A stretch of DNA of 64,000 nucleotides, from assembly GCF_058153355.1 (NCBI RefSeq), contig NZ_CM177019.1. One strand, 5' to 3'. Numbering within the stretch: position 1 is the first letter of the stretch; the number at the start of each line of letters is the position of its first letter. Under the pieces are notes generated by a model. The model saw nothing but the letters and a program-made list of their open reading frames with translations. It had not been told where the DNA came from and did no database searches. Below, piece by piece: positions 37,075 through 64,000 of this stretch. The position numbers were made by a program, and so were the translations under genes.

Positions 37075-38203
37075 CAGCAGCGAAGAAAAAACAGAGAAAC
37101 CCTCGGCGCAAAAGCTGCGTAAAGCGCGTGAAGAGGGACAACTGCCGCGCTCAAAGGATATGGGGCTGGCGGCGAGCCTGTTTGCGGCGTTTGTGGTGAT
37201 CTCCAGCAGTTTCCCGTGGTATGCCGATTTTGTGCGCGAGAGTTTTATCAGCGTGCATCAGTACGCGCAGGAGATTAATAACCCGGACGTTATCGGCCAG
37301 TTTCTGCGCCATCACCTGTTAATTCTCGGCAAGTTTATTCTCACGTTGCTGCCGATGCCCGCCGCCGCGCTGCTCTCTTCGCTGGTGCCCGGTGGCTGGC
37401 TGTTTCTGCCGAAAAAGATCCTCCCGGATTTCAGCAAAATCAGCCCGTTAAAAGGCATTGGTCGGCTGTTTTCCAGTGAACATCTGGCGGAAACAGGCAA
37501 GATGACGGCGAAGTCGGTGGTGGTGCTGGTGATGCTGTGGATTAGCCTGCGCAATAACTTTTCTGCCTTTCTCGGCCTGCAGGCGCTGCCGTTCAAACTG
37601 GCGATGAATGAAGGTTTATCGCTCTACGCCAGCGTGATGCGCAACTTTGTCATCCTGTTTATTTTCTTCGCGCTGATCGACGTGCCGCTGGCGAAAGCCC
37701 TGTTCACCAAAGGGCTGAAGATGACTAAGCAGGAGCTGAAAGAAGAGTACAAAAATCAGGAGGGCAAGCCTGAAGTGAAGGCGCGTGTGCGGCGGCTGCA
37801 ACGGCAGCTGGCGATGGGGCAAATCCGCAAAGTGGTGCCGAAAGCCAACGTGGTGATCACCAACCCGACCCACTACGCCGTAGCGTTGCAGTATGACCAG
37901 TCGCGCGCCGCTGCGCCGTTTGTGGTGGCGAAAGGCACCGATGAAATCGCCCTCTATATTCGCCAGGTCGCCACTGAGAATCAGGTGGAAGTGGTCGAGT
38001 TCCCGCGGCTGGCGCGCTCGGTTTACTACACCACCCAGGTGAATCAGCAAATTCCGTTTCAGCTTTACCGGGCCATCGCCCACGTTCTGACCTACGTCCT
38101 GCAAATGAAACACTGGCGCGACGGCGCACAGCCGCGCCCGGCTCTGAACAGACATATTTCCATTCCCAAAGAGGTGCTTAAACTGGATGGCGAAAACAAC
38201 TAA
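37064..38203 (+). CDS. lfhB: FlhB export apparatus switch protein
   Basis: 379-aa ORF with NPTH autocleavage motif (NPTHYAVAL). Confidence 0.9.
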   Translation: MADSSSEEKTEKPSAQKLRKAREEGQLPRSKDMGLAASLFAAFVVISSSFPWYADFVRESFISVHQYAQEINNPDVIGQFLRHHLLILGKFILTLLPMPAAALLSSLVPGGWLFLPKKILPDFSKISPLKGIGRLFSSEHLAETGKMTAKSVVVLVMLWISLRNNFSAFLGLQALPFKLAMNEGLSLYASVMRNFVILFIFFALIDVPLAKALFTKGLKMTKQELKEEYKNQEGKPEVKARVRRLQRQLAMGQIRKVVPKANVVITNPTHYAVALQYDQSRAAAPFVVAKGTDEIALYIRQVATENQVEVVEFPRLARSVYYTTQVNQQIPFQLYRAIAHVLTYVLQMKHWRDGAQPRPALNRHISIPKEVLKLDGENN

Positions 38204-40280
38204 ATCGTTCCTCGCGCTACTGCGCGGCGGCAATCTCGGCGTGCCGCTGGTGATCTTGTGTATTCTGGCGATGGTTATTTTGCCGCTGCCGCCTGCGCTG
38301 CTGGATATTCTGTTCACCTTCAACATTGTGCTGGCGGTGATGGTGCTGCTGGTGGCGGTGTCGGCGAAACGTCCGCTGGAATTCAGCCTGTTCCCGACTA
38401 TTTTGCTGATCACCACCTTAATGCGACTGACGCTTAACGTTGCTTCTACGCGCGTGGTGCTGCTGCACGGGCATCTCGGCGCGGGCGCAGCGGGTAAGGT
38501 GATTGAGTCGTTTGGTCAGGTGGTGATTGGCGGCAACTTTGTTGTCGGTTTCGTGGTGTTTATCATCCTGATGATCATCAACTTTATTGTCGTCACCAAA
38601 GGGGCCGAGCGTATCTCCGAGGTTTCTGCCCGCTTTACCCTGGACGCGATGCCCGGCAAGCAGATGGCGATTGACGCCGACCTTAACGCCGGATTGATCA
38701 ATCAGGCGCAGGCGCAGACCCGGCGTAAAGATGTTGCCAGCGAGGCCGATTTCTACGGCGCGATGGACGGGGCATCAAAATTTGTGCGCGGGGATGCCAT
38801 CGCCGGGATGATGATTCTGGCGATCAACCTGATCGGCGGCGTCTGTATCGGGATCTTCAAATACAATCTGAGCGCCGATGCCGCCTTCCAGCAGTATGTG
38901 CTGATGACCATCGGTGACGGCCTGGTGGCGCAGATCCCTTCCCTGCTGCTCTCCACCGCGGCGGCGATTATCGTCACCCGCGTCAGCGACAACGGCGATA
39001 TCGCCCATGATGTGCGCCACCAGCTGCTGGCAAGCCCGTCGGTGCTCTACACCGCCACCGGGATTATGTTCGTGCTGGCAGTGGTGCCAGGAATGCCGCA
39101 CTTCCCGTTCCTGATGTTCAGCGCCCTGCTTGGCTATACCGGCTGGAGGATGAGCAAACAACCGCAGGCGGCGGAGGCGGAAGAGAAAAGCCTCGAAACG
39201 CTGACCCGCACAATCACTGAAACCAGCGAGCAACAGGTCAGTTGGGAAACCATTCCGCTGATCGAGCCCATCAGTTTAAGCCTCGGTTACAAGCTGGTGG
39301 CGCTGGTGGACAAAGCGCAGGGTAACCCGCTCACCCAGCGGATTCGCGGCGTGCGGCAGGTGATTTCCGACGGCAACGGCGTGCTGCTGCCGGAGATCCG
39401 CATTCGCGAAAACTTCCGCCTCAAGCCCAGTCAGTACGCCATTTTCATCAACGGCATTAAGGCTGATGAAGCGGATATTCCGGCGGATAAACTGATGGCC
39501 CTGCCCTCCAGCGAAACCTACGGCGAGATTGACGGCGTGCTGGGGAACGACCCGGCGTACGGGATGCCGGTGACCTGGATTCAGCCCGCGCAGAAGGCGA
39601 AGGCGCTGAATATGGGGTATCAGGTGATCGACAGTGCCAGCGTAATTGCCACACATGTGAATAAGATTGTGCGCAGCTATATTCCTGATTTGTTTAACTA
39701 TGACGATATTACTCAGCTGCATAACCGTTTGTCGTCGATGGCACCGCGCCTGGCAGAGGATTTGAGTGCGGCGCTGAATTACAGCCAGTTGCTGAAAGTG
39801 TACCGGGCGCTGCTGACCGAAGGCGTTTCCCTGCGCGATATCGTCACCATCGCCACCGTGCTGGTCGCCAGTAGCACCGTCACCAAAGATCATATTCTGC
39901 TGGCGGCCGATGTGCGCCTGGCACTGCGGCGCAGCATTACCCATCCGTTCGTTCGCAAGCAGGAGCTGACGGTGTATACGCTGAATAATGAGCTGGAAAA
40001 CCTGCTGACCAACGTGGTGAATCAGGCGCAACAGGGTGGCAAAGTGATGCTCGATAGCGTGCCGGTGGACCCGAATATGCTCAACCAGTTCCAGAGCACG
40101 ATGCCGCAGGTGAAGGAGCAGATGAAAGCCGCAGGTAAAGACCCGGTGCTGCTGGTGCCGCCGCAGCTGCGCCCTTTGCTGGCGCGCTACGCAAGGTTGT
40201 TTGCGCCGGGGCTGCATGTGCTGTCGTATAACGAAGTGCCGTATGAGCTGGAGTTGAAGATTATGGGGGCGTTGAGTTGA
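38187..40280 (+). CDS. lfhA: FlhA export gate protein (full length)
   Basis: 697-aa ORF with FlhA-like TM and cytoplasmic domains; intact, unlike the K-12 remnant. Confidence 0.9.
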   Translation: MAKTTKSFLALLRGGNLGVPLVILCILAMVILPLPPALLDILFTFNIVLAVMVLLVAVSAKRPLEFSLFPTILLITTLMRLTLNVASTRVVLLHGHLGAGAAGKVIESFGQVVIGGNFVVGFVVFIILMIINFIVVTKGAERISEVSARFTLDAMPGKQMAIDADLNAGLINQAQAQTRRKDVASEADFYGAMDGASKFVRGDAIAGMMILAINLIGGVCIGIFKYNLSADAAFQQYVLMTIGDGLVAQIPSLLLSTAAAIIVTRVSDNGDIAHDVRHQLLASPSVLYTATGIMFVLAVVPGMPHFPFLMFSALLGYTGWRMSKQPQAAEAEEKSLETLTRTITETSEQQVSWETIPLIEPISLSLGYKLVALVDKAQGNPLTQRIRGVRQVISDGNGVLLPEIRIRENFRLKPSQYAIFINGIKADEADIPADKLMALPSSETYGEIDGVLGNDPAYGMPVTWIQPAQKAKALNMGYQVIDSASVIATHVNKIVRSYIPDLFNYDDITQLHNRLSSMAPRLAEDLSAALNYSQLLKVYRALLTEGVSLRDIVTIATVLVASSTVTKDHILLAADVRLALRRSITHPFVRKQELTVYTLNNELENLLTNVVNQAQQGGKVMLDSVPVDPNMLNQFQSTMPQVKEQMKAAGKDPVLLVPPQLRPLLARYARLFAPGLHVLSYNEVPYELELKIMGALS

Positions 40281-40363
40281 TTGAGGATTCTTTTCCATAC
40301 TTTGCAGCACCTGACACCATTAATTGACGTCACACTGCAAAGAGACTACGATGACACCATACA

Positions 40364-40663
40364 ATGACGTCATGGATTGATAGTATGATTAAGGTCAGCG
40401 CGCTAGGCTCTCGTCATAGAAAAACATTCGACGATGTAATGACGGAGCCGCCAAAATCTGGAATTAAATGGGATGATGTTGTTGCTCTCATTAAAGCGGT
40501 GGGTGGATCAATAAAAAATAACAACGGCTCCAGACGAAAATTTCAGATTGGAACGACCAAATTCAGCACACATGAGCCGCATCCAAAGAATGTGATGGAT
40601 AAAGGCGCAGTAGCAGGTCTTAAGGAGTGGTTTGTTAACTGTGTAGGGGTAGATTATGAATAA
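40364..40663 (+). CDS. Putative HicA-like toxin
   Basis: Small ORF 8 nt-overlapped with a HicB-like gene; His/Lys pattern GSRRKFQIGTTKFSTHEPHPKN; start may be internal (~40439). Confidence 0.45.
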   Translation: MTSWIDSMIKVSALGSRHRKTFDDVMTEPPKSGIKWDDVVALIKAVGGSIKNNNGSRRKFQIGTTKFSTHEPHPKNVMDKGAVAGLKEWFVNCVGVDYE

Positions 40664-41012
40664 AGCATCGAACATTATCACAATTAAAGGTCAACCAGCC
40701 GCAGTGACATTTGAAGCCGATATCAACGCATTTCGCGGCAAGTTCCTCAATGTAAACGGTTATTGTGACTTTGTAGCCACAAGTATTGAGGCATTATATC
40801 GTGAAGGCGAAAGCGCTCTGGATGAGTGGATGGCGGATTGTGAAGAGGACGGTATTGCCCCTTTTCGTGAAGAAGAAGAGCAAAAACGCCTGACGCTTCG
40901 TGTGCCGCATCACATCGATTCGCGGCTGACCATCGTCGCCAGACAACATTCCATTTCAAAAAACCAGCTCATTATTGATGTCTTAGAACGTGAGTTTTCA
41001 GCCCAGATGTAA
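40656..41012 (+). CDS. Putative HicB-like antitoxin with C-terminal ribbon-helix-helix
   Basis: 118-aa ORF; C-terminal RVPHHIDSRLTIVARQHSISKNQLI resembles an RHH DNA-binding motif. Confidence 0.55.
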   Translation: MNKASNIITIKGQPAAVTFEADINAFRGKFLNVNGYCDFVATSIEALYREGESALDEWMADCEEDGIAPFREEEEQKRLTLRVPHHIDSRLTIVARQHSISKNQLIIDVLEREFSAQM

Positions 41013-41034
41013 ACAGGTCGTCAATATTACCCAT

Positions 41035-41784
41035 TTACAAAATCGTCTCTTCCGTCAAAATCCGCCGCGCGCCTAAAAAATGATCCTGCCAGAAAGGTTC
41101 AGCTAACCGACTTACCCGAATGGTTTCCCCGGTGCGCGGCGACTCGATAAACTGACCGTCTCCCAGATACACGCCCATATGGTCGGCAATCTCGCGGCTG
41201 TGAATATGGAAAAACAGCAAATCTCCCCGGCGCAGGTCGTTATTTGCCACAATGGTTGCCCGACGGTAGTGATACATCTCATTGGCCGTGCGCGGGAGTT
41301 TCGCCTCGAGGATCTTGTTGTAGGCATAAAAAACCAACCCGCTACAGTCGAAGCCTTGATCGGATCGCGTGCCGCCCCAGACGTATGGCTTGCCAAGCTG
41401 CTGCTCCAGACGGTGAATCGCCACTTCGGTGATATTATGCAGGTGGTTACTGCTGAGGAAATGATTGTTTTCCGCCAGCGCCTGCCAGCGTCTGTCACTC
41501 GCCTTGAGCGGCGCAGGAAACCATTCTGGATGCTGTTTTATCTGTTCGCGGTTGTGTTGCCGCAGTGCCCTTCTGCTTTCGGCATTGCCTTCCACAATAT
41601 AGCTGGCCTGCTTTTTCAGATGAATTTGGTACTGTTTTAATAAACGCGCACGGTTTTGCATCCGCTGGCGGGCGGCGTAGCTGAAAGAGATATGTGATGC
41701 GGTGGCGCTGGCAAATGAAGAAAACGGCAAGCAAAGCAACAATAATCCCGACAACACAAAAGAGGGAATCGACGGCAAAGACAT
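41035..41784 (-). CDS. yafL: NlpC/P60-family lipoprotein endopeptidase YafL
   Basis: Signal peptide/lipobox and NlpC/P60 catalytic region (GFDCSGLVFYAY...H); start chosen at MSLPSIPSF. Confidence 0.85.
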   Translation of the reverse strand: MSLPSIPSFVLSGLLLLCLPFSSFASATASHISFSYAARQRMQNRARLLKQYQIHLKKQASYIVEGNAESRRALRQHNREQIKQHPEWFPAPLKASDRRWQALAENNHFLSSNHLHNITEVAIHRLEQQLGKPYVWGGTRSDQGFDCSGLVFYAYNKILEAKLPRTANEMYHYRRATIVANNDLRRGDLLFFHIHSREIADHMGVYLGDGQFIESPRTGETIRVSRLAEPFWQDHFLGARRILTEETIL

Positions 41785-41993
41785 TCTCAATAATGGCTGG
41801 TCATGCATTGATGTTGCAGTGTATCCCGGCCCGTACCTGAACAAACTTAATAAACCATTATTATAAAATTAATAAATATATTTCAGTTAATTATGTAAAA
41901 ACATCCGTTTATTAAATTACTCATGGATTGTCGTTGTTGCTCATTTGAGCTACAATTCAAGCTGAATAAATATACAGCACAGGAGATACCCCA

Positions 41994-42254
41994 ATGGCTG
42001 CTAACGCGTTTGTTCGCGCCCGAATCGATGAAGATCTGAAGAATCAGGCGGCGGACGTACTGGCCGGGATGGGGCTGACCATCTCTGACCTGGTTCGCAT
42101 AACCCTCACAAAAGTCGCGCATGAAAAGGCATTGCCGTTTGATTTACGCGAGCCTAATCAATTAACCATTCAATCAATTAAAAACAGCGAAGCTGGCGTT
42201 GATGTTCATAAGGCCAAAGACGCCGATGATTTATTTGATCAATTAGGAATTTAA
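41994..42254 (+). CDS. dinJ: DinJ antitoxin
   Basis: 86-aa ORF MAANAFVRARIDEDLKNQA... Confidence 0.9.
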   Translation: MAANAFVRARIDEDLKNQAADVLAGMGLTISDLVRITLTKVAHEKALPFDLREPNQLTIQSIKNSEAGVDVHKAKDADDLFDQLGI

Positions 42255-42256: not shown

Positions 42257-42535
42257 ATGATTCAAAGGGATATTGAATACTCGGGACAATTTTCAAAGGA
42301 TGTAAAACTTGCACAAAAGCGTCATAAGGATATGAATAAATTGAAATATCTTATGACGCTTCTTATCAATAATACTTTACCACTTCCAGCTGTTTATAAA
42401 GACCACCCGCTGCAAGGTTCATGGAAAGGTTATCGCGATGCTCATGTTGAACCGGACTGGATCCTGATTTACAAACTTACCGATAAACTTTTACGATTTG
42501 AGAGAACTGGAACTCACGCGGCGCTATTTGGGTAA
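42257..42535 (+). CDS. yafQ: YafQ toxin (RelE-family mRNA interferase)
   Basis: 92-aa ORF immediately after dinJ. Confidence 0.9.
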   Translation: MIQRDIEYSGQFSKDVKLAQKRHKDMNKLKYLMTLLINNTLPLPAVYKDHPLQGSWKGYRDAHVEPDWILIYKLTDKLLRFERTGTHAALFG

Positions 42536-49079: not shown

Positions 49080-49300
49080 GGGTGTTGTGTTTAGGACCGG
49101 GGAGAGTCGGGGTAAGACTACGAAAGCCCGCTCTCCTGCGACCACTTTTATCATAGGAGTGTGGAAGCGCTTTTCCATCAATTGCGATGACGTCTTTATC
49201 ATTTGATGAATGGCAATCTCGCATCCAGTTAATAAAGCATTCGTGAAATTATACTGAACGGATACAAGACATAACTCTAATTATGGTGCCGTGAACAGGA
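49080..49300 (-). mobile_element. ISAs1-family (H-repeat) transposase remnant, yafF-like
   Basis: Degenerate fragments ([40 protein letters not shown]) homologous to the second remnant at 50800-51340. Confidence 0.65.
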
Positions 49301-49348
49301 TTACCATTTTCAAAATTACGATATTATTTGCAGTAATTATGTTATTAA

Positions 49349-49861
49349 TCATTGTGATATTTCCATCTCTGTGATTAATACCGGATAAGCATTTAATTGC
49401 AGAGTTTGCACGAAATTATCGCAGATAACTGGCAATAACAATAACCCATCAGCCCGCTGCTGTAATACCTCCATTCGTTCTACTGATTCAACATTAACAA
49501 CCAAACCAAGGGCATTTAGCGATTTAAGGATCTCCAGATGTTCACTCATCCAGCGCAGAGAAAAAGGATCATCACCAATTATAAAAACAGGCCCCCAGCC
49601 GGTTAATAACTGGCGTTTCATTACGGAACCAGGATGAAGTCGAGTACATATTACAGGAAATACCCCCTGTTGCGATGGTTCCAATGATGTGGATAATTCA
49701 GAAATATTTTCCATTGTTAGTGAAGAATTAACATCCATTAATAATGGTGAAACAACCTCACTTTCCTTGCTAGTAATGGCTGCACTAATCTGAGAGGAAA
49801 ATAACAATATTATTACGTATAAACTCATTTTTAACATAACAAATTCAATCCGTTTATTCAT
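49349..49861 (-). CDS. Hypothetical secreted protein
   Basis: 170-aa ORF with N-terminal signal-like hydrophobic segment; AT-rich. Confidence 0.45.
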   Translation of the reverse strand: MNKRIEFVMLKMSLYVIILLFSSQISAAITSKESEVVSPLLMDVNSSLTMENISELSTSLEPSQQGVFPVICTRLHPGSVMKRQLLTGWGPVFIIGDDPFSLRWMSEHLEILKSLNALGLVVNVESVERMEVLQQRADGLLLLPVICDNFVQTLQLNAYPVLITEMEISQ

Positions 49862-49927
49862 GTTATAGAATAATGATGCTATAAATCATCATTAATGTTC
49901 AATTATTTAATCACACAGTTTAAAAAA

Positions 49928-50431
49928 TCATTGACCAATGTGAATTGGCAATGTACCACTCAAGTTAAAATCACTGAATATTTTATCAATTTCTCTTGCA
50001 GTTTCTATATATTTAACCTCTTTCGTACTTGCATTATAAATAGCCCAAGCCTCGGGATGGGATGTTCCACCAAACCTTACAAAAAAACTTGATTTCATAT
50101 TATTATATAAATTAACATCAGGAAAAGGATCTTCTCCAAAATTAGTAGTATTGAATAATGAAAGTTCGTATCGCTTAGAAAATTCTGTTGGTAGGATAGC
50201 TTCACTGCCATCAATAGCATTCATCCAGAGTTTGTTACCATTATATTCCAACAATAATCTCTGTTTTGCATGTGTCTTATCTCGTTCTTTAACGACAGCG
50301 AATACCTTTTTAACAACTTGCTGTGCGGATGGTCCTATTGTATTACCAAAAGCTGGCAACCCGATTTTGCCATAAACACTCTCCTGAATAAAATAAATAT
50401 CCGTTTTATCGGCCTCGACAATATCTACCAT
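49928..50431 (-). CDS. Hypothetical protein
   Basis: 167-aa ORF, AT-rich, no recognised motif. Confidence 0.4.
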   Translation of the reverse strand: MVDIVEADKTDIYFIQESVYGKIGLPAFGNTIGPSAQQVVKKVFAVVKERDKTHAKQRLLLEYNGNKLWMNAIDGSEAILPTEFSKRYELSLFNTTNFGEDPFPDVNLYNNMKSSFFVRFGGTSHPEAWAIYNASTKEVKYIETAREIDKIFSDFNLSGTLPIHIGQ

Positions 50432-50799
50432 TTATCCCTCCAAACAAGACCTGACTCCAGGACAAGAGCATAGTGTGTAGTAAACACTTCATGCTCTTGC
50501 CCTGACCATTGAAATAACAACTTTCGTTTGTTTACTGTACGCTGTCTAAATAGCTGCGTGGAATAAAGTTGCACTTTTTATCATCCCTTGCAGAGCAAGA
50601 TTACGAAAACCCGTCTCCGCAAGGACTGACGCGAGGTAGTCTCTGTCCGTAGCTGCTTTCACATCTTACATCTTGCCCCTGCCTTGAGTATCTTATCTTT
50701 CTTTGAAATATTAATAGCGATGTTCCGTATCCCTGAAATAATTCTGCTGCATTTCCTCTTCTTATTTTGAAGTCGTCTTTATTCATTACCACGTCCAGA

Positions 50800-51340
50800 T
50801 GCTAGTGCAATTTATTCTCCACTTGCCAGTGATTTCGGTTCGCTGTGGCGAACTTCTCTGCGGTTAAATCAGCAGAAATGCTAAAATATCTGACCGTCAT
50901 TTCGGGATTTTTCTTTTGTTCTGCTATTATTGAGCGAAATGAGACTGCCATGCATAATTTCTTCAGCCCTTTCCATTCAAACGTAAAATCAATAAATTCA
51001 TCAGGGACATCGCAAATAATATGAAGACGGATTTTAATGACATAAATCGCTCCCTTGCGGCGACTCTTGTCATAAGAGTGCCGAAGCGTTTTTCCATCAA
51101 TTGCAATGACATCTTTATCATCTGAGGAATGGCAGTCACGCATCCAGTTAATAAAGCACTCATGAAATTTTGCAGGACTGATACAGGATACAACTCTGGC
51201 AATGATATCGTGAATAGGAATACCATTTTCAAAATCACCATATCACTTCAAAAAATCGGGATGTGTTTCCCCAAATCCTCTATATCTTCCCAGCCTTATG
51301 CACCAGAAATAACGGCGCAAATAGTTAACAGATAGAATAT
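50800..51340 (-). mobile_element. ISAs1-family (H-repeat) transposase remnant with internal deletion
   Basis: Fragments with [19 protein letters not shown] and C-terminal [11 protein letters not shown] motifs, out of frame. Confidence 0.7.
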
Positions 51341-51683
51341 CTGGCAATTTATGCTCCACTTTCCAGGCTTGCCTGTAATCGGGGATAATAGAAATATGTT
51401 CCATCAATTTTTTAAGTTCCATTTTGTCCCCCTTAATTATGCAATGAGTATTTGATCATGTATAAGCAATGAAAAACAGCTTTAGGTAATAAGGAACACC
51501 TCAATTATTGAACATAAAATGCGAATTATTTAGTACAAAAAAAGCAGCATTAAGTGAGTAGGCCACCGGAACCTCCCCGACAGCCTCTCGCAGAACCGTA
51601 CGTGAAACTCTCGCTTCATACGGCTCCCGTCAGGCAAACGCGCTTCCTGGTCCTGCTTTCCAGTGGGCAAACAACTCCGGCTT

Positions 51684-52955
51684 CTATTTTGACAGCCTTT
51701 CCATTAGCTGACACGCCTTCGTCTTTCTATACCGCAGGGTTTTATATTTCTTTCTCGCCCACGCAATCAGCGTCAGATTAATATATCTGCATACTTTCTT
51801 CATCGCTGATTTGTGGTATCTCGCGTAATAATTCAGCCACCCCGATATTATCGGATTCAGCCACTTCGCAATATCTTCGAGACTCATCTCCACCCTGCGT
51901 CTGATCCACTGTTTCCTGAGTTTTCCAATCATGCCTTTCTGCGCACGGTTACTCGCCGCCGGGCTGAAACTCGTAAAGAGGTTTCCCCGCCGGTGGTTAC
52001 GTGCTCTTCGCGCTCTGAACGTATACCCCAGAAAATCAAACTGCACTGTTTCATGGTTCGCCTGTCGTTCGCTGTCTTTGCAGTAAACTATTTTCGTTTT
52101 CTCCGGATGTAATTCCAGTCCACATTCCTGAAAACGTTTTGCCAGCTTATTCAGTAATTCCTCTGCCTGTTGTTTACTGCCACAATGAATTAATCCATCA
52201 TCTGCATAACGGCACCAGGGAATTTCCGGATAATGTAACGTCAGCCATTTATCAAACACATAGTGCAGAAATAAATTCGCCAGTACCGGGCTGATGACTC
52301 CACCCTGTGGCGTACCTTTATTTCTTTCCTTCAGTGTTCCATCCGGCATCTGCACCGGCGCTGTCAGCCACCGGCGAATAGACAGTCTTACCCATTTATC
52401 CGCACAATGTTTATCTACTGCCCTGAGTAATAAATCGTGGGAGATATTATCGAATAACCCTTTAATATCAAACTCAAGACACCAGTCGTATTGCCAGCAA
52501 CGTTTTCTGGTGACTGCTATTGCATCCAGCGCTGATTTTCCATGCCGGTATCCGTATGAATCATTCAGGAAATAACGCTCCACTAATGGTTCAAACGTTA
52601 CCAGCACCGTCATCTGCGCTATTCGATCGCTTACTGTCGGTATTCCTAAAAGTCTTTTGCTGCCATCCTTCTTCGGAATTTCCACCGCACGCACTGGCGG
52701 CGGCATCCAGCTTCCCGACGATAACCTGTTCCAGATTTTGTACAGATTTCCTTTCAGATCCCGCTCAAAATCTTTCAGCGTCTGGTTATCCACTCCGGCA
52801 GCTCCGGCATTCGCCTTTATCCGCCGGTACGCTTCCACCACATGCAATTTACTGACCTGAAACGGTTTTGTCTGTTCACACACAGCCTCCTCCTGCCTAC
52901 AGTTGGGCTGTGATGCAGACTGCCCGACGCTGTCCCTTCGCTCCACGTTCATTAC
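51684..52955 (-). CDS. Group II intron-encoded reverse transcriptase/maturase
   Basis: RT motifs (LLGIPTVSDRIAQ, YADDGLI) and maturase X region; start set at MNVERRD because the upstream in-frame extension runs into the IS21 terminus. Confidence 0.85.
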   Translation of the reverse strand, partial: VMNVERRDSVGQSASQPNCRQEEAVCEQTKPFQVSKLHVVEAYRRIKANAGAAGVDNQTLKDFERDLKGNLYKIWNRLSSGSWMPPPVRAVEIPKKDGSKRLLGIPTVSDRIAQMTVLVTFEPLVERYFLNDSYGYRHGKSALDAIAVTRKRCWQYDWCLEFDIKGLFDNISHDLLLRAVDKHCADKWVRLSIRRWLTAPVQMPDGTLKERNKGTPQGGVISPVLANLFLHYVFDKWLTLHYPEIPWCRYADDGLIHCGSKQQAEELLNKLAKRFQECGLELHPEKTKIVYCKDSERQANHETVQFDFLGYTFRARRARNHRRGNLFTSFSPAASNRAQKGMIGKLRKQWIRRRVEMSLEDIAKWLNPIISGWLNYYARYHKSAMKKVCRYINLTLIAWARKKYKTLRYRKTKACQLMERLSK

Positions 52956-53153
52956 AAACGCTTCCTCACTACTACGAACAGCTCTGCCCCGGTTTCGCAC
53001 ATCGATACTCTCATACTCATAATTTCGGTTATTTGTATTTCTCTCTTGACATTGCGACGACCGGTTCCCGTAGTTCCTGCAAAGAGCCTGATATGTCAAC
53101 GCCACGATTTTTAACCGTTATTTGCCATTTTCATGCCCGCTAAGATACTTTCG

Positions 53154-55123
<1,970 letters not shown>

Positions 55124-55574
55124 GTTGATGTCCTTTCTGGTGTGGGAACCTTAAGGAAACAACATGTTGGGTGGAGCGGACAATCCAAATGGCGAATTAC
55201 CGTCTTATATCACTGGCGCTGACAGATACAGCGTCATGCCTGCTATACACCGGACACCATTCACGCAGCATTCGGAATTCACCCGTAAATTAATCCCGGC
55301 GGTATCACGAAACCTCCGGTTTTGATGTCACTTAGGACTAACGACGTTTCAACACAGGTTCGGGTTTACTCATCTCACTGTATCTCACATAGGATCAGAT
55401 CTCGTCTGATCGTTCCCCCTGCGCTCACTACCATGGCTCTTTACCACAGCAGCCGGGGTTGTTTGGGACCGACTTCCGACAGCAGATCCCGGTGGGCCTG
55501 CCACCATCTCTTCACAAGCTTATGCTTATTACATGCAAAACGTCCCGTTTTGCATCTTTGTGCCTACGGCACAC

Positions 55575-55899
55575 CGTGATCTTTCCCTGGACTCGATTTC
55601 GGTTTTGAAGGCGCTTCTATGCCCATAATATCCGGCGCTGAGATAAAAAAGCTATGGCACTGCACACAATGTACAACATGCTGGCTATAACTGTTTTTAA
55701 ACCTGTAGCCCTGATAACCAAATTCATTTGCCGGGCGCTCACAGCATGAACATTTTTCCTGAACTATTTCTGGTTCAGTCATATAAGGAGCAACAACATG
55801 AGTCAGTGATTTATATACCAGCTCAACAGGATGAGTTGTTATATCGACTTCGGAAATATTCATATTATTAATTCTCCAGACATTTTTAATTATAATCAA
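55575..55899 (-). CDS. Hypothetical Cys-rich small protein whose 3' end abuts the group II intron 5' boundary
   Basis: ORF with CSCCERP...CVQCH cysteine pattern; reading frame runs into the putative intron start. Confidence 0.3.
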
Positions 55900-56046
55900 T
55901 GATGGTTTTGTGCGAGTAGCAAGAAATTTCTTTATGTTTTTTTCAGGTACTTTAAGACGAACCTAACAATTCCAATGTAAAAATTAATTATCATGCTGAC
56001 TTTAGATCTACATACATCAGCACTGATACTCACTGTAATGAGTGAG

Positions 56047-56649
56047 TTATTTATCATAATTTCTCAATTGCACAGCATCACAAAGATGTTCATTTTTTAT
56101 ATCATACGAATATTCTACTTCACTACCATCATCACATTTTTTTGGCTGTGAAAAAGCATGAATTATAATATTTTCGCCATGAGAGTCGCATTCATTTTGA
56201 AGTATATCCATATCTTCCTGTGAATATGCCTGCATATAACTATATGGATTTTTTAGAATTTCAGACAACGGGAAAACATCCTCTTTCAATGAAATAGAGT
56301 CACCCAATGCCAGTAATTTATAATAATAATCTTTATCACCACCTTCTAAATCCCATGTAAAAAGGAATTGTCCCTCATCCCAGAACACTATTGCATTACG
56401 TTCTCCAGTGGCCCAGTTAAGACCCAGCATACAGAAATTATTTTTTAAATAATTCTTTTTATATAACAATAATAAATATCTTAAAGATTCTTCATAATGA
56501 CTTCTGTAAGGATCTTTCATGGTAACATGAAAGTATGATTCAGGTTTATCCCTAAATATTCCGAAACCGGGGGATTCAGGCAATGGTTTCGATAACGCTT
56601 CACCTGCAAACATGAATAAAACAGACAATATGATACTTCTGATTTTCAT
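56047..56649 (-). CDS. Hypothetical secreted protein (candidate immunity protein)
   Basis: 200-aa ORF with signal peptide MKIRSIILSVLFMFAGEALS; AT-rich; 4-bp overlap with the upstream ORF. Confidence 0.45.
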   Translation of the reverse strand: MKIRSIILSVLFMFAGEALSKPLPESPGFGIFRDKPESYFHVTMKDPYRSHYEESLRYLLLLYKKNYLKNNFCMLGLNWATGERNAIVFWDEGQFLFTWDLEGGDKDYYYKLLALGDSISLKEDVFPLSEILKNPYSYMQAYSQEDMDILQNECDSHGENIIIHAFSQPKKCDDGSEVEYSYDIKNEHLCDAVQLRNYDK

Positions 56650-57566
56650 TTCTTTTTTCTCTGGTTCGGGTCATCAATAAATGACTGTTCCAACCCATAG
56701 AAATCCTGACCAGCCAGACTAAATATTAATTTAAAATTATTGCCAGGGGATGATTTCCCCTGGGTTCTCCAGGCATAAACATCTTTAATATGTGGCAATG
56801 AAGAGTAGAGTTCTTTACCTCTTGCAATATCAATAGAATATTTTATTAACCGCCTATTTTCTAAAAAATATTTATTTTGTCCAATATTAGCGTTCTTAAT
56901 AAGATCATCTATATGGTCATCGACATCTTTTCTTAAACCTGGATAATTACTAAATCCGGCAATAACTCTTTCCACTCTAATCAGTCCCACTAATGTTTTA
57001 TTATTAGAGGGAACATCAAGACGATCAGGGCGAGAGAAAGTAAAACGATTTAATAACGCACGTCGCATATATTGCATTGATTTTATCGCGTCTTTTTCAT
57101 TATACTTTTCCCCACGAGTTAAAGGGGTTTTCGTCTCAGCCAGTAAGACCATTAGCATGGCTCGTTCACTCTCCGAAAGACCATCTGCGAGTGTTTCTCT
57201 TTTTATTTTACTAAGGACATTAACAGTTAAAGTTGGAAAACAATTTTTATATACTCCTCCAACTGTTGCCGGGCAATGCCCCAGATATGCTCCAGATGAA
57301 CTGGCGCTATCATAGGCATGAATGGTAGCGATTCCCAATCCTTTTGCCCGGACAACTATAGTTTGCTCCAGTTGTCCTGTTCTGGAAGACTGCTCAATTG
57401 ATAAAATACCGGGGCGAGATGATGCCAATTTTAGATGCTGACCTTTGGCATCAAACCCTCTTATCTTAATACGAAAAACATCCTTATCAGTCATATAATA
57501 AAAAAATTTATTCAATGCTGTTTTTGAGTCCGAGTTTGGACTAATGAAAATTTCACCATTCGCCAT
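56646..57566 (-). CDS. Hypothetical protein (candidate orphan effector)
   Basis: ORF of about 306-339 aa, AT-rich; start uncertain between 57566 and 57665. Confidence 0.4.
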   Translation of the reverse strand: MANGEIFISPNSDSKTALNKFFYYMTDKDVFRIKIRGFDAKGQHLKLASSRPGILSIEQSSRTGQLEQTIVVRAKGLGIATIHAYDSASSSGAYLGHCPATVGGVYKNCFPTLTVNVLSKIKRETLADGLSESERAMLMVLLAETKTPLTRGEKYNEKDAIKSMQYMRRALLNRFTFSRPDRLDVPSNNKTLVGLIRVERVIAGFSNYPGLRKDVDDHIDDLIKNANIGQNKYFLENRRLIKYSIDIARGKELYSSLPHIKDVYAWRTQGKSSPGNNFKLIFSLAGQDFYGLEQSFIDDPNQRKKK

Positions 57567-57763
57567 TATGTACCTCACAAAAAACAATATAAAAATTGCG
57601 ATAAAGTATTCAATATGTTGATTCCCGTTATTGCAGGTAATATTCCTGCTCAATAAATGCACCAATCACTTTGTCGTGCATTTCTGTGGATTTCGAATAC
57701 CTCAGTGTCTTCCGGTCGAGTCGTTTCAGGCTGTTCCCAGGGCGAGAGCATGCTTTTGCCCTA

Positions 57764-58414
57764 TCACCTAATACAGAATCGATCATCTGAAACATATTCA
57801 CCCATCGCTACCTTATCGCCTAATTTTATTTTTTGCTCCCTGAGTAATCGATTGATATTTCCATCATAACAAAATTTTTTTTGTCTGCTATCAAAATAAT
57901 AATATTCATCCATCATCACTTCAAATTGCTCTCCATTTTGAGGGCCTATATAGCCCAACACACCTTTAATCCATATTTTATCTTCAACATGAGTAAAAGA
58001 TATTTTTTTAAAACCAATGCAAGGAGAGTAATCATTAAAAAAATAACCTTCAAATGGTTTATTTGAGACTATTATTCTTTTATCTGGAGTAAATATAGCA
58101 ATGTTGCATCTCTGAAAATCATCTTGGACAACACCTTTAATTTTATTACTATATACAAACGGTACAATGTAATATCCATTTCCTTTACTTATCTCTCTTA
58201 TTTGATCTTCATATATATATATATTATCATATTTATCTATATGCTTCCGAGTGTAATAGATATAAGAAAGTGGCTCCAAAGCATATTTTTGCTCAACAAA
58301 GCATCTTATTTCCTTCTCAATTTCACTGTAATCAACAGATAACATAGCATAACAATGCGTATAGCAAATTAGCATCAATGTGCTAACACTGCCTCGTATA
58401 ATCAATGACAACAT
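57764..58414 (-). CDS. Hypothetical protein with N-terminal hydrophobic segment (candidate immunity protein)
   Basis: 216-aa AT-rich ORF immediately downstream of the GH19-like gene. Confidence 0.4.
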   Translation of the reverse strand: MLSLIIRGSVSTLMLICYTHCYAMLSVDYSEIEKEIRCFVEQKYALEPLSYIYYTRKHIDKYDNIYIYEDQIREISKGNGYYIVPFVYSNKIKGVVQDDFQRCNIAIFTPDKRIIVSNKPFEGYFFNDYSPCIGFKKISFTHVEDKIWIKGVLGYIGPQNGEQFEVMMDEYYYFDSRQKKFCYDGNINRLLREQKIKLGDKVAMGEYVSDDRFCIR

Positions 58415-59408
58415 TCACCTCCTGCCTATTTCGTGTGATTTGGATAGTCTCTGTTTGCGTGTTAATAACATCATCAGAAAGAAATTTATATGTATATCTA
58501 GAGAATGCTTGCCGCTCAAAATATTGGAAACCACCACCATTTACCAACTTAGAACAAAGACCTATTGATTCTGTATTAATTCCGGAATCACAACATCTAT
58601 TAATATTAACTATTGATGGTTCTTCACTATTGACTCTATATTGTTTAGAAACCCAAAAGAAACCAGCCGAATCAGTTGATAAATATTCACTAGAGGATAT
58701 CATATTAGGGTCATAATAAGGATACCAAATTTTATTTAATGTACCATCAATATAAACCTCCGTTCTCCCTGTTTGTCTGTTTCTTCTTGTTCTTCTTGGA
58801 TCACCCCAATAATGCAAGGAGTCATGTGTTATTCTATTATCTGTATAACTCTCACTCTGATTTAAATTAGAAAGAACCAGATCACTTTGGAATTTTTTAT
58901 ACTCTTCGTAATTACCAGCCCATGTTAATTGCATCATACCTCTACCATAAAACACTTGATAATACTCCATTGCAGGCGCAGTCCAGGTTCCATCATTTTT
59001 GGGATATCCCCGACCAAACTCTGTCATTGTTCGCATCATCGCTGTTTCGGTATATATTTGCCCAAGATATAAACCTTTTCTATTAGCATTAAGAATTAAG
59101 TATTTATTACAGCATCGGTTAAAATGTTTATAGTAGCTCTCCCACCGAGATTTTGCAGATTGAAAAGAAATAGAGTCAGTTTGGGGATCTCCTGGATATC
59201 CAGCATAATAAACGCGAGGTAATAATGACGCAACTTCATCTAAAGCCAGCCATCCACATTTCCTGAAATGGCTAATGAATGTCCTGGGGTCAAAATGCCA
59301 TACTCTTCCTGCGGGTAAATCACCGCTAATGCATAATGCCCTGGCATGAGCCAGAAGTTTATCCCAGTCTGGCCTTTTCATCGGTTTTGCGGCTAAACTC
59401 ATCCTCAC
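58383..59408 (-). CDS. GH19-like (chitinase/lysozyme-family) putative peptidoglycan hydrolase, candidate T6SS effector
   Basis: Motif FYGRGMMQLTWAGNYEEY closely resembles the GH19 signature FYGRGPIQLSWNYNY; downstream of vgrG. Confidence 0.55.
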   Translation of the reverse strand: MRMSLAAKPMKRPDWDKLLAHARALCISGDLPAGRVWHFDPRTFISHFRKCGWLALDEVASLLPRVYYAGYPGDPQTDSISFQSAKSRWESYYKHFNRCCNKYLILNANRKGLYLGQIYTETAMMRTMTEFGRGYPKNDGTWTAPAMEYYQVFYGRGMMQLTWAGNYEEYKKFQSDLVLSNLNQSESYTDNRITHDSLHYWGDPRRTRRNRQTGRTEVYIDGTLNKIWYPYYDPNMISSSEYLSTDSAGFFWVSKQYRVNSEEPSIVNINRCCDSGINTESIGLCSKLVNGGGFQYFERQAFSRYTYKFLSDDVINTQTETIQITRNRQEVNVVIDYTRQC

Positions 59409-60660
59409 CGTCTACCAGAAGCCAGTTAAAACGCTCCTCCAGTGAGGAGGCCTCCCATTCCTGATTGAAATGGCAAATAGCTCGCTGGCAACTACTGGCA
59501 AAATGTTTACTTCCTTTCCAGTTATTTATTGTGTCAGAATGACACTGACTGTCGTGAACAGAGTCATCATCCACCAGTCTCCATCCCATCCAGTGTGGAA
59601 AATCTCCGTCACTGTATTTTTTTATATTCGGATCAGCCAGATTTACCACTCCATGCCCCCCCGGATAATTTACTGTTCGCCAGAGCGGTGCATTGGATGG
59701 CGTCAATACCTCATGTTCACTATTAATCACCCGACCAAAGCGTAATAACTCAAATCCGGAACTGGGTCTCTGCGGATATAACTTCATTGCTGTTTTATAA
59801 AGATTATACTCATATTTATCACCGTCTTTATTAATCAATGCCTCGCCTACAGTTTCATATACATACTCATCTATCTCACCCTCACTCACTTCTTTTTTCA
59901 TTCTCGTCACCATCTCACAGTTTCCAGTATCAAATTTCATAGTAACGAACAACGGAAACATGCTGGTATAAACCGGTGACAAACCAGTGGTTTCAGCACT
60001 GTTATTTTCTGGTATCTTATCGTAGAAAATTGTGTCTACTGGTAAGTAGAAATGTATATCACCATACACAACTTCAGTTCTACCATCTTTTGTCAAATCA
60101 GTTTCTGGTTCCAGTTCTTCTCTACCTGTCAGCTTCTTTGTGTTTTCATCATCACTGAATATCTGGAAATGAAACTCTTTATCGCCATCTGCCAGGCCTG
60201 GTGTCCCTAACACATCCTTTCTGTATATCTTACTTCCCTGAGTCACTCTCCCCTCAATCTCATTCAGGTGCATATACACCGACCAGTATGTAACCTTCCC
60301 GGATTCGCCGTCACCTATTTCCGTTTCGTGTTTTATTACTACACATCCATCATCTGTTGGGCCGTTATAATTAAGCGGTGCTGAATCTCGTTTTTCAACC
60401 GATGAAGGCGTTCGGACATAAACAACTGTTCCGTCTGCAATTGCTCTGATTTTATCCTCTGCATTCGTGTACGAAATATGAATGCCGCCATGCCAGGAGC
60501 CTCGTAAATTTATAGGGTAATTTCTGAACTGATCAACTGGCATCATCCAGTCAATCCATGACTCATCAATCCCACTATTATTGGGATGAGTTAAAAAAGG
60601 AGGGCTAATTATCATTTTTAGTGTACCTTTATTAAAAAAGATAATGTAATGCTGGTACAT
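59359..60660 (-). CDS. Putative T6SS-associated protein with peptidase M23-like motifs
   Basis: 433-aa ORF directly after vgrG; WHGGIHIS and EFHFQIF segments loosely resemble M23 metal-binding motifs; assignment tentative. Confidence 0.35.
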   Translation of the reverse strand: MYQHYIIFFNKGTLKMIISPPFLTHPNNSGIDESWIDWMMPVDQFRNYPINLRGSWHGGIHISYTNAEDKIRAIADGTVVYVRTPSSVEKRDSAPLNYNGPTDDGCVVIKHETEIGDGESGKVTYWSVYMHLNEIEGRVTQGSKIYRKDVLGTPGLADGDKEFHFQIFSDDENTKKLTGREELEPETDLTKDGRTEVVYGDIHFYLPVDTIFYDKIPENNSAETTGLSPVYTSMFPLFVTMKFDTGNCEMVTRMKKEVSEGEIDEYVYETVGEALINKDGDKYEYNLYKTAMKLYPQRPSSGFELLRFGRVINSEHEVLTPSNAPLWRTVNYPGGHGVVNLADPNIKKYSDGDFPHWMGWRLVDDDSVHDSQCHSDTINNWKGSKHFASSCQRAICHFNQEWEASSLEERFNWLLVDGEDEFSRKTDEKARLG

Positions 60661-60681
60661 TATCTGTTTAAATAGTTTTTA

Positions 60682-62718
60682 TTACGAAAATATGAAGTTC
60701 GCAGTCGTATCGTCATCAGCCTCTGGCACTTTCAGCGCCGCCGGTTGCAGCGTCGGCACGGGTGTCCCCGGACTTCCCCCACCGTTCAGGTTTATCTTCG
60801 GCCCCACGATATCCACGCCACCAGAATGAACGACAACGAACGAGCCGCCCACCTTCAGGGTGATTTTACCGCCGCTCTCCAGTACGATTTCATCCCGGAC
60901 CTTCATTCCCAGCGCGCCGGTAATTTTCCTCGCCAGGTCGCCTTTCACCTCCAGACTGTGTTTCCCCTCCACGAGGCTAATGTGGTTTCCTGTCGTCTTG
61001 TGCTCCTGCTTCCCTTCCACCGTCACCTTTCGGTCATTTTTTACATACAGACCGTCATCGTGGCTGACGTTCACCCGCCGGTCGTTCGTCACCTTCAGCG
61101 TCTGGTCATTGCGCACCGTGATGCTCCGGTTGTGGGCCACCGTGATGGTCTGGTCGTGCCCCCCGGCATTCTCTTTCCCCACCGTCACCGTCTGGCCCAG
61201 CCCCACGGTGATTTTCTGGTTGTTCCCGATGGTCTCCGTGTGGTCATGCTTCACGTCCGTTGTCCGGTCGTTGAGCACCTCCGTGTCCATGTTCTTCTGC
61301 GCGTGGATATAGACCTGCTCATTACTGGTGGCGTCCTCGAACCGCAATTCGTTAAAGCCGCTTCCTTTATAGGTCTTCGACCGTATCGTCATCTGCGTCT
61401 TCGTGCCCGGTAAATCCCCCGGTGAACGGTTGTCCTCATGGTAGGTGCGTCCCGTGACGATGGGCTGGTCCGGGTCCCCGTTCAGAAAGTCCACTATCAC
61501 TTCCTGACCCACACGCGGTATCGCCAGATTACCGAACCCCGCTCCCGCCCACGCCTGCGACACCCGTATCCAGCATGAACTCTCCTCCGTCATCCCGTGA
61601 TAACGGTCCCAGTGAAACTTCACCCGCACCCGTCCATGTTCGTCGCAGAATATCTCCTCGCCCTTCGGCCCGGTCACGATGGCACTCTGCGGGCCGTCCA
61701 CCTTCGGCTTCGGTAGCGGCGCGTGACGCCACGTCCTGTCCGCCGGTATCACCTCAAACTGGTTACTCAGCGTCGTTCCTTCACCGTGACTGCCGTGCAG
61801 CGCCTGCGGCTGTTCCCCCAGCAGCGTGCTTCCCACAACCTGCCATTCACGGTTCAGCGTCTCCGCACCACTCCGCCAGCCTTCCGTCTGGTAACGCGCA
61901 AAGTCCTGCCCGTGCTGCTCATCCTTGAAACGCCCCGGATAATCAAATATCTCGTACTGCGTTCCCTGTCCGTTCAGGCTCTCCCCGTCATGGCTGTAGT
62001 ACCCCGGCCACCCCGGCACTTTAAACGTATAATCCTGCGTCTCCACCGACGCCACGCTTATCTGCGCACGGTAACGAAACTCGCTGATGTACTCCGTCTT
62101 TCCCCCGGTCGTCGTGTTCGGGTTAAACGCCAGCGTTCCCATTCCCGTCAGCCCCGCCACGTCATCACACACCGCCAGCTTCTGCTCCGGCCCTTCCTGA
62201 CCGCAGCGCTCATAAAAGAAGATACCTTCCTCCGCCCACAGCCGGGTCAGGAATGCCAGGTCGCTCTCCCCGTACTGCACGCAGAACTCCCGCGCCGGGT
62301 GCGCCTCATAGAACAGCGGCATCCACGCCGTCACCCCGTTCTCTCTCAGAAGCTGTGCTGATATCGTCTGAATGTCCTGCTGCTGGAAGATACGGAAGTT
62401 CTGCCGTAACCCTGCCCGCCACAGCGGCGGGCTGATGCTCAGGGAATAACGCATCTGCCAGTCGTTGTTCTCACCGAGCTGCACCTCCGTCACGATACCG
62501 CTGACGTAACGCTGCGGGATATCACCCTGCCAGACCGTCAGCACCGCGCTCTTCTCCAGAAAATCTTCTGCCGTCAGGTCAGACAGTCCGCTGGCGATAT
62601 CCACATCCAGGATGAACGGTGTGCAGTGGTGCTGGTACAGACGGAAGCTCACCACCGCCGTCGCCATCTCCACAATACCGTCCACCGACAGCGTGAAACG
62701 TAATCCTTCTGAGGACAT
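60682..62718 (-). CDS. vgrG: Type VI secretion spike protein VgrG
   Basis: 678-aa ORF with gp27/gp5-like VgrG sequence and C-terminal beta-helix repeats. Confidence 0.9.
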   Translation of the reverse strand: MSSEGLRFTLSVDGIVEMATAVVSFRLYQHHCTPFILDVDIASGLSDLTAEDFLEKSAVLTVWQGDIPQRYVSGIVTEVQLGENNDWQMRYSLSISPPLWRAGLRQNFRIFQQQDIQTISAQLLRENGVTAWMPLFYEAHPAREFCVQYGESDLAFLTRLWAEEGIFFYERCGQEGPEQKLAVCDDVAGLTGMGTLAFNPNTTTGGKTEYISEFRYRAQISVASVETQDYTFKVPGWPGYYSHDGESLNGQGTQYEIFDYPGRFKDEQHGQDFARYQTEGWRSGAETLNREWQVVGSTLLGEQPQALHGSHGEGTTLSNQFEVIPADRTWRHAPLPKPKVDGPQSAIVTGPKGEEIFCDEHGRVRVKFHWDRYHGMTEESSCWIRVSQAWAGAGFGNLAIPRVGQEVIVDFLNGDPDQPIVTGRTYHEDNRSPGDLPGTKTQMTIRSKTYKGSGFNELRFEDATSNEQVYIHAQKNMDTEVLNDRTTDVKHDHTETIGNNQKITVGLGQTVTVGKENAGGHDQTITVAHNRSITVRNDQTLKVTNDRRVNVSHDDGLYVKNDRKVTVEGKQEHKTTGNHISLVEGKHSLEVKGDLARKITGALGMKVRDEIVLESGGKITLKVGGSFVVVHSGGVDIVGPKINLNGGGSPGTPVPTLQPAALKVPEADDDTTANFIFS

Positions 62719-62934
62719 ATGACCTCCCTTGATTCACTTACAGAACACTGGTTGTCTACTGACCATGCAGCAGAGGGTGCCAGTACAGCGTTACGCTCAT
62801 ATTCAGGTACGCTACCGCCCGGGTTCCCGGCATCCACCATCTCCCTCATGAAAGCGTAACTCCTTACTGACACTCATTTTTTACACGTACAAAAACAACA
62901 TCCTGCACTAAGGCAGGATGTTGTTGACTCAGAT

Positions 62935-63453
62935 TTATGCTTCCAGCGGTGCACGCCAGTCATCGGCACCAGAAGTACCGGATTTGATGTGCTCCCACTC
63001 AACCTTACGGTAGGCCAGTGATACTGCGAGCAATTGCGTAAACTCACGCTGTGCAGGGTCCTGGCAGTGCGGCATATGCAGGTTCATGTCCACAATCGTC
63101 GCGTCAGTAAGACGTGTGGTGAAGTAGTGCTCCTGCTTGCCTTCAACAGAGGTACGCCACCAGTGCAGCTCCACTTTCGGCAGCATTTCACCGGAGGCCA
63201 GCGCGTTGTACAGCAGCGGAACGGCTTTGTTCAGCGCCACGGTGAAAATGAACGGTTTGTGAGCACGCTGCCCGGAAGGCTGACCAGACTGCGGATCGGT
63301 TGGAACAGTAACGTTATGCAGAAACTCCTGCACCAGCATTTCATCTTCGTGTCCCTGCACGTAGATATTGCCGACAGAATCTGCGGTGAAAGCACCGGCA
63401 GTGATGTTCCCCTGGGTCTGACCTGTAATTGAAATGTAACATGGGGTTGGCAT
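62935..63453 (-). CDS. hcp: Type VI secretion tube protein Hcp
   Basis: 172-aa ORF with Hcp-family sequence directly upstream of vgrG. Confidence 0.9.
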   Translation of the reverse strand: MPTPCYISITGQTQGNITAGAFTADSVGNIYVQGHEDEMLVQEFLHNVTVPTDPQSGQPSGQRAHKPFIFTVALNKAVPLLYNALASGEMLPKVELHWWRTSVEGKQEHYFTTRLTDATIVDMNLHMPHCQDPAQREFTQLLAVSLAYRKVEWEHIKSGTSGADDWRAPLEA

Positions 63454-64000
63454 TTATGAACTCCTTGTGAAATTATCAACTGCTGTTTTACGAACAACCC
63501 GTCGTTAATCCCCGACAGGTTAGAGTGTGATGCGGCTCACATCAGGAACCACACCCTTTTCTTTATTCGAGTTACAGGCACACGTAATTAGCACCTACCG
63601 AAAAACTCTTTTATGGTGTTTAAATATATTTTTAGTCAATTTCAGAACACGGTCACATAAGCTAAAAATATATCAACATCAACAGTAGAATTATCCATAA
63701 CGTATCCTCACCCCCATAAAAACCTACAATTTCGTCAAAAATCAATTATTACAACGCTTACTTCACCATCGTTCCGGCACGCAATTAAGATATTCCTTAA
63801 AGGAATTTCTTATGATGTATTGCTAGCAATTAATTAATTTATAAAACCATACATAAAACTTATTAATCAATTTAATAAACACATATAAATCAATGTGTTA
63901 TGGCACTTTATTGGCCGTAAAATTATATTCACCAAGTCTATAAATACCAAATTGATTTCACTAACATGTATTAATAATGAAGGATACATCTCTTTCAAAA

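Follow-up and report, generated by a model that had tools for sequence, protein, structure and literature searches.

A chromosomal operon in the rayT slot of Escherichia coli, probably a Class 4 HicAB toxin–antitoxin system, with arginine at the catalytic histidine position of HicA

We analysed a 64-kb stretch of DNA (hereafter the window) in which two small genes lie on the plus strand between lfhA and yafL. A previous sequence-only reading had described these as two small overlapping ORFs forming a HicAB-like module at the position where K-12 carries rayT, and both ORFs could indeed be located there on the same strand, sharing 8 nt. The genes and the borders of the inserted segment are as follows.

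38187 to 40280, plus strand: lfhA, full length, 697 aa
40277 to 40283, no strand assigned: left cassette boundary, placed where K-12 similarity stops, at the stop codon of lfhA (pairwise alignment, blastn)
40385 to 40663, plus strand: hicA (ORF1), 92 aa, identical to RefSeq WP_000598759.1
40656 to 41012, plus strand: hicB (ORF2), 118 aa, identical to RefSeq WP_001030482.1, with an N-terminal HicB-type domain plus, at its C-terminus, a ribbon-helix-helix (RHH)
41033 to 41037, no strand assigned: right cassette boundary, placed where K-12 similarity is regained, at the stop codon of yafL, TAA (TAG in K-12) (pairwise alignment, blastn)
41035 to 41844, minus strand: yafL
41994 to 42254 (dinJ) and 42257 to 42535 (yafQ): dinJ-yafQ, after yafL

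The 8-nt overlap lies in ATGAATAA, so that the hicB start codon sits just ahead of the hicA stop codon and the genes are translationally coupled. Among the homologous loci retrieved from other genomes (L numbers), L003, L005 and L008 likewise have genes overlapping by 8 nt, and those of L007 overlap by 4 nt. While the span of 40364–41012 proposed for the pair was correct, the start of hicA had to be moved from 40364 to 40385. Position 40364 opens the longest possible ORF (40364–40663, 99 aa), yet the likely start is the ATG at 40385, giving a protein that begins with MIKVS, since this ATG is the one used for WP_000598759.1, since orthologues from other genera have 92 aa and begin with MIKV or MINV (a more distant one has 95 aa), and since the ATG at 40364 is located inside the fourth of the operator boxes described below and is missing in the Salmonella orthologue. 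We therefore rejected the ATG at 40364. In all loci compared, a GGA or AGGA motif precedes the ATG equivalent to 40385.

In K-12 the gene order is yafL, rayT and lfhA', and alignment of the window with this genome breaks within the last lfhA codons and is regained at the yafL stop codon. A slot of 754 bp with hicAB in the window thus stands against a slot of 896 bp with rayT and REP sequences in K-12. Since K-12 similarity ends and resumes exactly at the slot edges, hicAB and rayT/REP can be considered alternative fillings of one slot between the convergent genes lfhA and yafL. The pairwise alignment, in which the hicAB segment replaces the rayT and REP segment, bears out the assignment to the K-12 rayT position. 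rayT (yafM) is a REP-associated tyrosine transposase; together with its REP sequences it occupies the same intergenic position, bounded by the lfhA and yafL stop codons, but it is unrelated to hicAB in sequence and function, and no REP sequences remain in the slot of the window. Among 5426 complete E. coli genomes, the 754-bp hicAB segment was found in 1479 (1369 at at least 80% coverage), always as a single copy and almost always on the chromosome, while a rayT-type filling was detected at at least 80% coverage in 3564. As these two states add up to about 5040 of the 5426 genomes, approximately 380 genomes must display a third state of the slot. E. coli genomes without a RAYT have been noted in the REPIN literature (PMC8049555), and carriers of hicAB in this slot may correspond to them.

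Upstream of hicA lie a promoter-like sequence, recovered by a consensus scan, and a repeated box pattern, which comprise the following features.

40324 to 40352, plus strand: sigma-70-like promoter, with the -35 hexamer TTGACG at 40324–40329, a 17-nt spacer and the -10 hexamer TACGAT at 40347–40352
40312 to 40332, plus strand: putative operator unit 1, TGACACCA-N5-TGACGTCA, its second box overlapping the -35 hexamer
40352 to 40372, plus strand: putative operator unit 2, TGACACCA-N5-TGACGTCA, 40 bp after unit 1 and over the expected transcription start

The two units are 21-nt direct repeats and together provide four palindrome-like boxes of 8 bp resembling TGACGTCA, with a centre-to-centre spacing of 13 bp within each pair, so that boxes 3 and 4 cover the expected transcription start. 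The pattern TGACACCA-N5-TGACGTCA occurs twice in the 64-kb window, where 0.03 occurrences would be expected by chance, and both copies lie upstream of hicA. The same two-unit layout, equally far from the start codon and mostly built of perfect TGACGTCA boxes, is displayed by four other loci with unrelated flanks, and the most distant locus, L007, whose HicB is 50% identical, carries a covarying pair, TGACTTCA-N5-TGAAGTCA. Box positions are consequently conserved in five of six loci of different genomic context and covary in the sixth. Comparison of E. coli alleles showed variation in the flanking bases but none in the boxes, a single base in one allele excepted. The Leclercia-like and Salmonella loci likewise retain the -35 hexamer TTGACG and the 17-nt spacing, but their -10 hexamer is CAGAAT or TAGAAT and the spacer sequence differs. 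Judging from this pattern of conservation, the four TGACGTCA-like boxes are probably HicB operators, and their layout would fit tandem binding of RHH dimers and autorepression by analogy with characterised HicAB systems (PMC10865869). The conserved four-box arrangement thereby offers a ready prediction for HicB–DNA recognition. On either side of operator unit 1, at 40300–40307 and 40335–40342, lie the arms of a perfect 8-bp inverted repeat, CTTTGCAG/CTGCAAAG; this repeat is only partly kept in other E. coli alleles and is absent from other genera, and was set aside as an operator candidate.

At the opposite end of the module, no intrinsic terminator was found downstream of hicB in the window. 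Most E. coli alleles have 34 extra nucleotides between the stop codons of hicB and yafL (approximately 2233–2288 in L013–L016); this insert folds into a strong GC hairpin with UUUU behind it (-27.1 kcal/mol, z -5.3) and resembles a terminator for the convergent genes. The window allele (41013–41034, junction at about 41020/41021) and a few genomes of at least 99% identity are devoid of this insert, and because the hairpin is missing, transcription of hicAB may run antisense into yafL in the window.

Both proteins could be assigned to the HicAB family by profile searches, with matches far above chance level, as the sequence-only reading had anticipated; the result named there as a refutation, a lack of HicA and HicB domain matches, was thus not obtained. 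ORF1 matches the Pfam family HicA_toxin PF07927 (i-E 1.7e-6; residues 36–84 of the 99-aa ORF, model positions 1–50 of 58) and the phage family PHROG 8887, labelled 'toxin' (E 5e-20), and it aligns without gaps to a canonical E. coli HicA (hhalign, E 3.4e-6, probability 88%). An exhaustive homologue search over cluster representatives returned 634 matches at E<=1e-3, from which an alignment of 44 subfamily members was drawn. The resulting 44-member profile aligns to HicA from B. pseudomallei (6g26/4c26, E 0.02) and to HicA3 from Y. pestis (4p78), and this depth was required, since a shallow profile of 13 sequences yielded only spurious TIR-domain matches in the PDB. In the AF2 model (pLDDT 97), helix 29–38, strands 42–45, 50–55 and 58–63 and helix 73–87 constitute a dsRBD-like alpha-beta-beta-beta-alpha fold, preceded by an extra N-terminal helix at residues 9–19, which is conserved in the subfamily with the consensus KHxKTLxxIFxxP. 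The best Foldseek matches of the model are 6g26_E/F, i.e. B. pseudomallei HicA (probability 0.9, TM 0.60–0.63 normalised to the target), followed by 1whz, 6hpb_A and 4c26.

ORF2 matches the Pfam HicB family PF05534 (i-E 4.1e-10, residues 60–110) and no other Pfam family, and additionally PHROG 9151, 'HicB-like antitoxin' (E 5.4e-13, residues 6–114), and a PHROG family of Arc-like repressors (E 7.5e-5, residues 72–115). Its AF2 model (pLDDT 82) features strands 7–10, 13–20, 25–30 and 38–41, which together with the long helix 44–65 form an N-terminal partial RNase-H-like domain, while helices 85–97 and 102–117 come after an RLTLRVP segment. The best Foldseek matches are HicB3 (4p7d/4p78), E. coli HicB (6u0i) and TTHA0281 (2dsy), with probabilities of 0.95–0.99 over about 50 residues, and the N-terminal part superimposes on 4p78_A, 6u0i_B, 2dsy_D and 6g1c_B with an rmsd of 1.1–1.7 A over 50–54 residues (probability 0.66–0.99). 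Despite these high probabilities, Foldseek E-values were weak (0.16–0.5), as expected for very small domains, and amounted to 0.3–3 for the HicB superpositions. Over the strand-helix-helix region 70–115, AmrZ (E 0.018) and Arc (E 0.57) could be aligned to the HicB family profile; this alignment, the Arc-like repressor match and the predicted helices agree with the C-terminal RHH that had been proposed for ORF2. Several HicB homologues are annotated as 'encoded in hypervariable junctions of pilus gene clusters'. Other searches contributed little: an NCBIfam scan with HicA and HicB gave no meaningful match, the only one being NepR (E 0.13), which was dismissed, and phmmer with the single HicA and HicB sequences against PDB sequences returned nothing relevant, the importin and VapC30 matches (E>0.1) being likewise dismissed.

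We therefore propose that the locus is a chromosomal type II toxin–antitoxin operon of the HicAB family, Class 4, a reading to which we assign a probability of roughly 80%, with toxicity and binding taken over from the family. In this model, the dsRBD-like HicA would arrest growth, most likely by ribosome-independent RNA cleavage as described for its family (PMC10865869, PMC11594946, PMC12297915). HicB would neutralise HicA by docking on the sheet of the toxin with its N-terminal partial RNase-H-like domain, and would, as in related systems, dimerise via its RHH and bind the TGACGTCA-type boxes. As the boxes lie over the -35 hexamer and the expected transcription start, HicB binding would autorepress the operon.

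The distribution of the module outside E. coli is that of a mobile element. In each of five other chromosomal or plasmid contexts, orthologous cassettes from other genera are flanked by unrelated neighbours, i.e. higBA in a Leclercia-like contig, a nearby integrase in Salmonella and housekeeping genes elsewhere, and such unrelated neighbours across genera are typical of a mobile toxin–antitoxin cassette. Both genes are under purifying selection: between genera, dS is saturated and dN amounts to 0.18–0.43, with dN/dS of 0.08–0.30 for both genes where computable, and E. coli alleles of 96–98% DNA identity differ by only 1–2 residues per protein. Inspection of five complete genomes, namely EC42405, which is 100% identical, and four with other alleles, showed both ORFs to be intact in each.

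Decay of the module is nevertheless observed, and it is one-sided. About 110 of the 5426 E. coli genomes carry hicB without hicA in the slot. In E. coli YDC107 (L010 2415–2850, corresponding to window positions 40281–41012), the body of hicA is missing together with the -35 hexamer and operator unit 1, and an in-frame fusion joins hicB to the initiation region of hicA, with an ATG at L010 2473, while the RefSeq start at 2494 is an ATA codon. This strain additionally has no dinJ-yafQ. In other Enterobacteriaceae, a truncated hicA is found beside an intact hicB (L004 3730–3870, 46 aa; L009 2730–2975, 81 aa). The converse, loss of hicB with hicA kept, was not encountered among the loci retrieved. 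This order of loss, hicA before hicB, would be expected if the toxin is active and counts as indirect evidence only.

The truncated hicA alleles and orphan hicB genes could also be read as signs of a module that no longer functions and persists only as an inert remnant in decay, in line with the frequent decay of chromosomal toxin–antitoxin loci and with the loss of the hairpin downstream of hicB in the window allele. However, the intact ORFs in the window and in all five complete genomes with so few amino-acid changes, the conservation of promoter and boxes across genera and a dN/dS well below 1 all speak against such a remnant, rendering it highly improbable. A different question concerns the biological role rather than the mechanism of the proposed toxin–antitoxin operon, which could mainly serve anti-phage abortive infection instead of stabilising the Flag-2/dinB region or acting as a stress or persistence switch. 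The patchy, mobile distribution with different neighbours in each genus and one locus beside higBA, as well as relatives in phage families (PHROG), would be compatible with such a role, which Gerdes 2024 proposed for HicA-domain loci (PMC10865869). PADLOC models, on the other hand, gave zero matches for hicAB, and no known defence genes adjoin it in the window. Furthermore, hicAB is found with an intact Flag-2 locus as well as with the K-12-like Flag-2 deletion, and with or without dinJ-yafQ, a pattern that does not separate the possible roles. We regard a mainly anti-phage function as a minority option, on balance rather doubtful.

The feature in which the window protein departs from characterised toxins is its active site. 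Characterised HicA proteins all require, for toxicity or RNase activity, a histidine at the start of beta2 (H23 in Ec, H24 in Bp, Ng and Sm, H28 in Yp, H36 in Sp), and the glycine two residues before the catalytic histidine (Gly22 in Bp and Ng) is also required (PMC11594946, PMC12297915). From the profile alignment to 6g26/4c26/4p78 and the gapless hhalign alignment to canonical E. coli HicA, the following correspondences were obtained, in 92-aa numbering and with counts over the subfamily alignment.

Gly48: canonical Gly22 in the beta1-beta2 turn; G in 42/44 members
Ser49: canonical Ser23; S in 43/44 members
Arg50: canonical catalytic His24; R in 38/44 and H in 0/44 members
His63: canonical Thr37; H in 43/44 members
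His66: canonical His40; H in 44/44 members

The HicA-like histidine pattern claimed for ORF1 thus departs from the canonical form, the column of the catalytic histidine being occupied by Arg50. Judged by sequence and predicted fold, the window protein is a HicA homologue, but one without the catalytic residue of the studied type. The two histidines of the protein that are near-invariant (His63) or invariant (His66) among the aligned subfamily members constitute an HxPH motif. Gonococcal HicA remained toxic when His40, the residue aligned to His66, was mutated (PMC12297915). His63 should face Arg50 across the strands, because beta2 (50–55) and beta3 (58–63) form a hairpin in the model, and would thus, by its predicted secondary structure, be a cross-strand neighbour of Arg50. 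If catalysis is retained, it was probably taken over by a relocated histidine, which we favour over a differing activity. No papers on a HicA without the conserved histidine were found in the open-access literature.

These features raise the possibility that the pair is HicAB by descent while its HicA is not an RNase, but acts by RNA binding only, performs other chemistry or is non-toxic, with HicB mainly serving as a transcription factor. This would be suggested by arginine replacing the catalytic histidine in three independent alignments (profile, hhalign and Pfam match region), by the complete absence of histidine from this column in the subfamily and by the conserved N-terminal helix, which characterised HicAs do not possess. 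Against it stand the conservation of His63 and His66 adjoining the canonical site and of Gly48, the equivalent of Bp Gly22, the strong purifying selection on both genes, the loss of hicA with hicB kept but never the reverse in the loci seen, and the label of the matching PHROG family as a toxin, so that we consider a HicA without RNase activity unlikely. Returning to the preferred reading of a HicAB toxin–antitoxin operon, we tentatively suggest, at slightly worse than even odds, that the 634 representatives form a large, experimentally untouched HicA subfamily with an added N-terminal helix, arginine for the catalytic histidine and a near-invariant His63 on the neighbouring strand, whose members, if toxic, would be HicA RNases with a relocated active site or would have another activity or target. 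If this holds true, the mechanistic picture derived from His24-type proteins would not transfer directly. The HicA of this widespread E. coli module is a cheap and accessible test case for variation in HicA catalysis.

The existence of the module itself is already known, since it is annotated in RefSeq and listed by Gerdes 2024. RefSeq/PGAP names the products 'type II toxin-antitoxin system HicA family toxin' and 'HicB family antitoxin', an annotation found in roughly a quarter of complete E. coli genomes (1479 of 5426). Gerdes 2024 (mBio, PMC10865869) sorted HicA loci into 14 classes, and Table S1 of that work lists the E. coli pair UIV62394.1/UIV62393.1 as Class 4, with the order hicA-hicB and an RHH HicB. 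UIV62394.1 (92 aa) differs from the window HicA by one substitution, S42T, and UIV62393.1 (118 aa) from the window HicB by two residues. The HicAB call is therefore correct but ordinary; it repeats the RefSeq annotation and a published catalogue, and its practical value is small. What is left as novelty is the uncharacterised Arg-for-His HicA subfamily and a clean operator prediction. In the open-access literature, we found no experimental work on hicAB of the rayT slot or on its HicA subfamily; the comparative paper on Flag-2 does not mention the hicAB cassette, and for the genes measured in the O157 MC2 paper, the literature cited there is confined to K-12 hicAB.

Among studied systems, Class 4 hicAB as represented by B. 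pseudomallei (6g26) and Y. pestis HicA3B3 (4p78) is among the closest (PMC10865869), with the same gene order, hicA first and overlapping genes, and with a dsRBD-like HicA, a HicB composed of a partial RNase-H-like domain and an RHH, and palindromic promoter boxes in common. The window pair, however, shows marginal similarity to the solved Class 4 proteins, with a profile E of 0.02 and Foldseek alignments at about 18% identity, and the window HicA differs from the solved HicAs by the extra N-terminal helix 9–19 and by arginine in place of His24/His28. The K-12 HicAB system (hicA/yncN-hicB/ydcQ; 6hpb) shares family and general logic and is recovered by Foldseek (6hpb_A, TM 0.64 normalised to the target; 6hpb_B/6u0i_B), but it belongs to Class 3, with an HTH in HicB, resides at a different chromosomal locus and keeps the catalytic His23; phmmer detected no similarity between the two pairs. 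The HicB of an IncI2-plasmid HicAB was assigned to pfam15919 (PMC11878559) and hence to a subfamily different from that of the window HicB, which matches the Pfam model of the Haemophilus-type HicB family, PF05534.

It should be noted that hicAB had been counted as a third toxin–antitoxin module of the region. This count does not hold: yafN-yafO is absent from the window, dinJ-yafQ is the sole other module found in the parts examined, and hicAB is therefore the second one there. At about 990–3857, dinB is directly followed by yafP, with the yafN-yafO pair that K-12 carries between them missing, likewise in EC42405. In the IS/T6SS region of related genomes that matches 49–64 kb, with poor colinearity, no toxin–antitoxin genes are annotated. 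The window further contains a complete Flag-2 lateral flagellar locus at approximately 3857–40280; in the comparison with K-12, similarity leaps over the stretch from about 3857 to 38568, and K-12, like many strains that carry hicAB, displays a lafU'-lfhA' deletion scar instead. Positions 49196–64000, downstream of yafV, form an island in which fragments of ISAs1 and IS21 and the reverse transcriptase of a group II intron occur together with T6SS genes (VgrG, a Tle1-like effector, DUF3304, DUF4123 and Hcp). The closest complete genomes cover only 37–52% of this island, which is thus highly variable.
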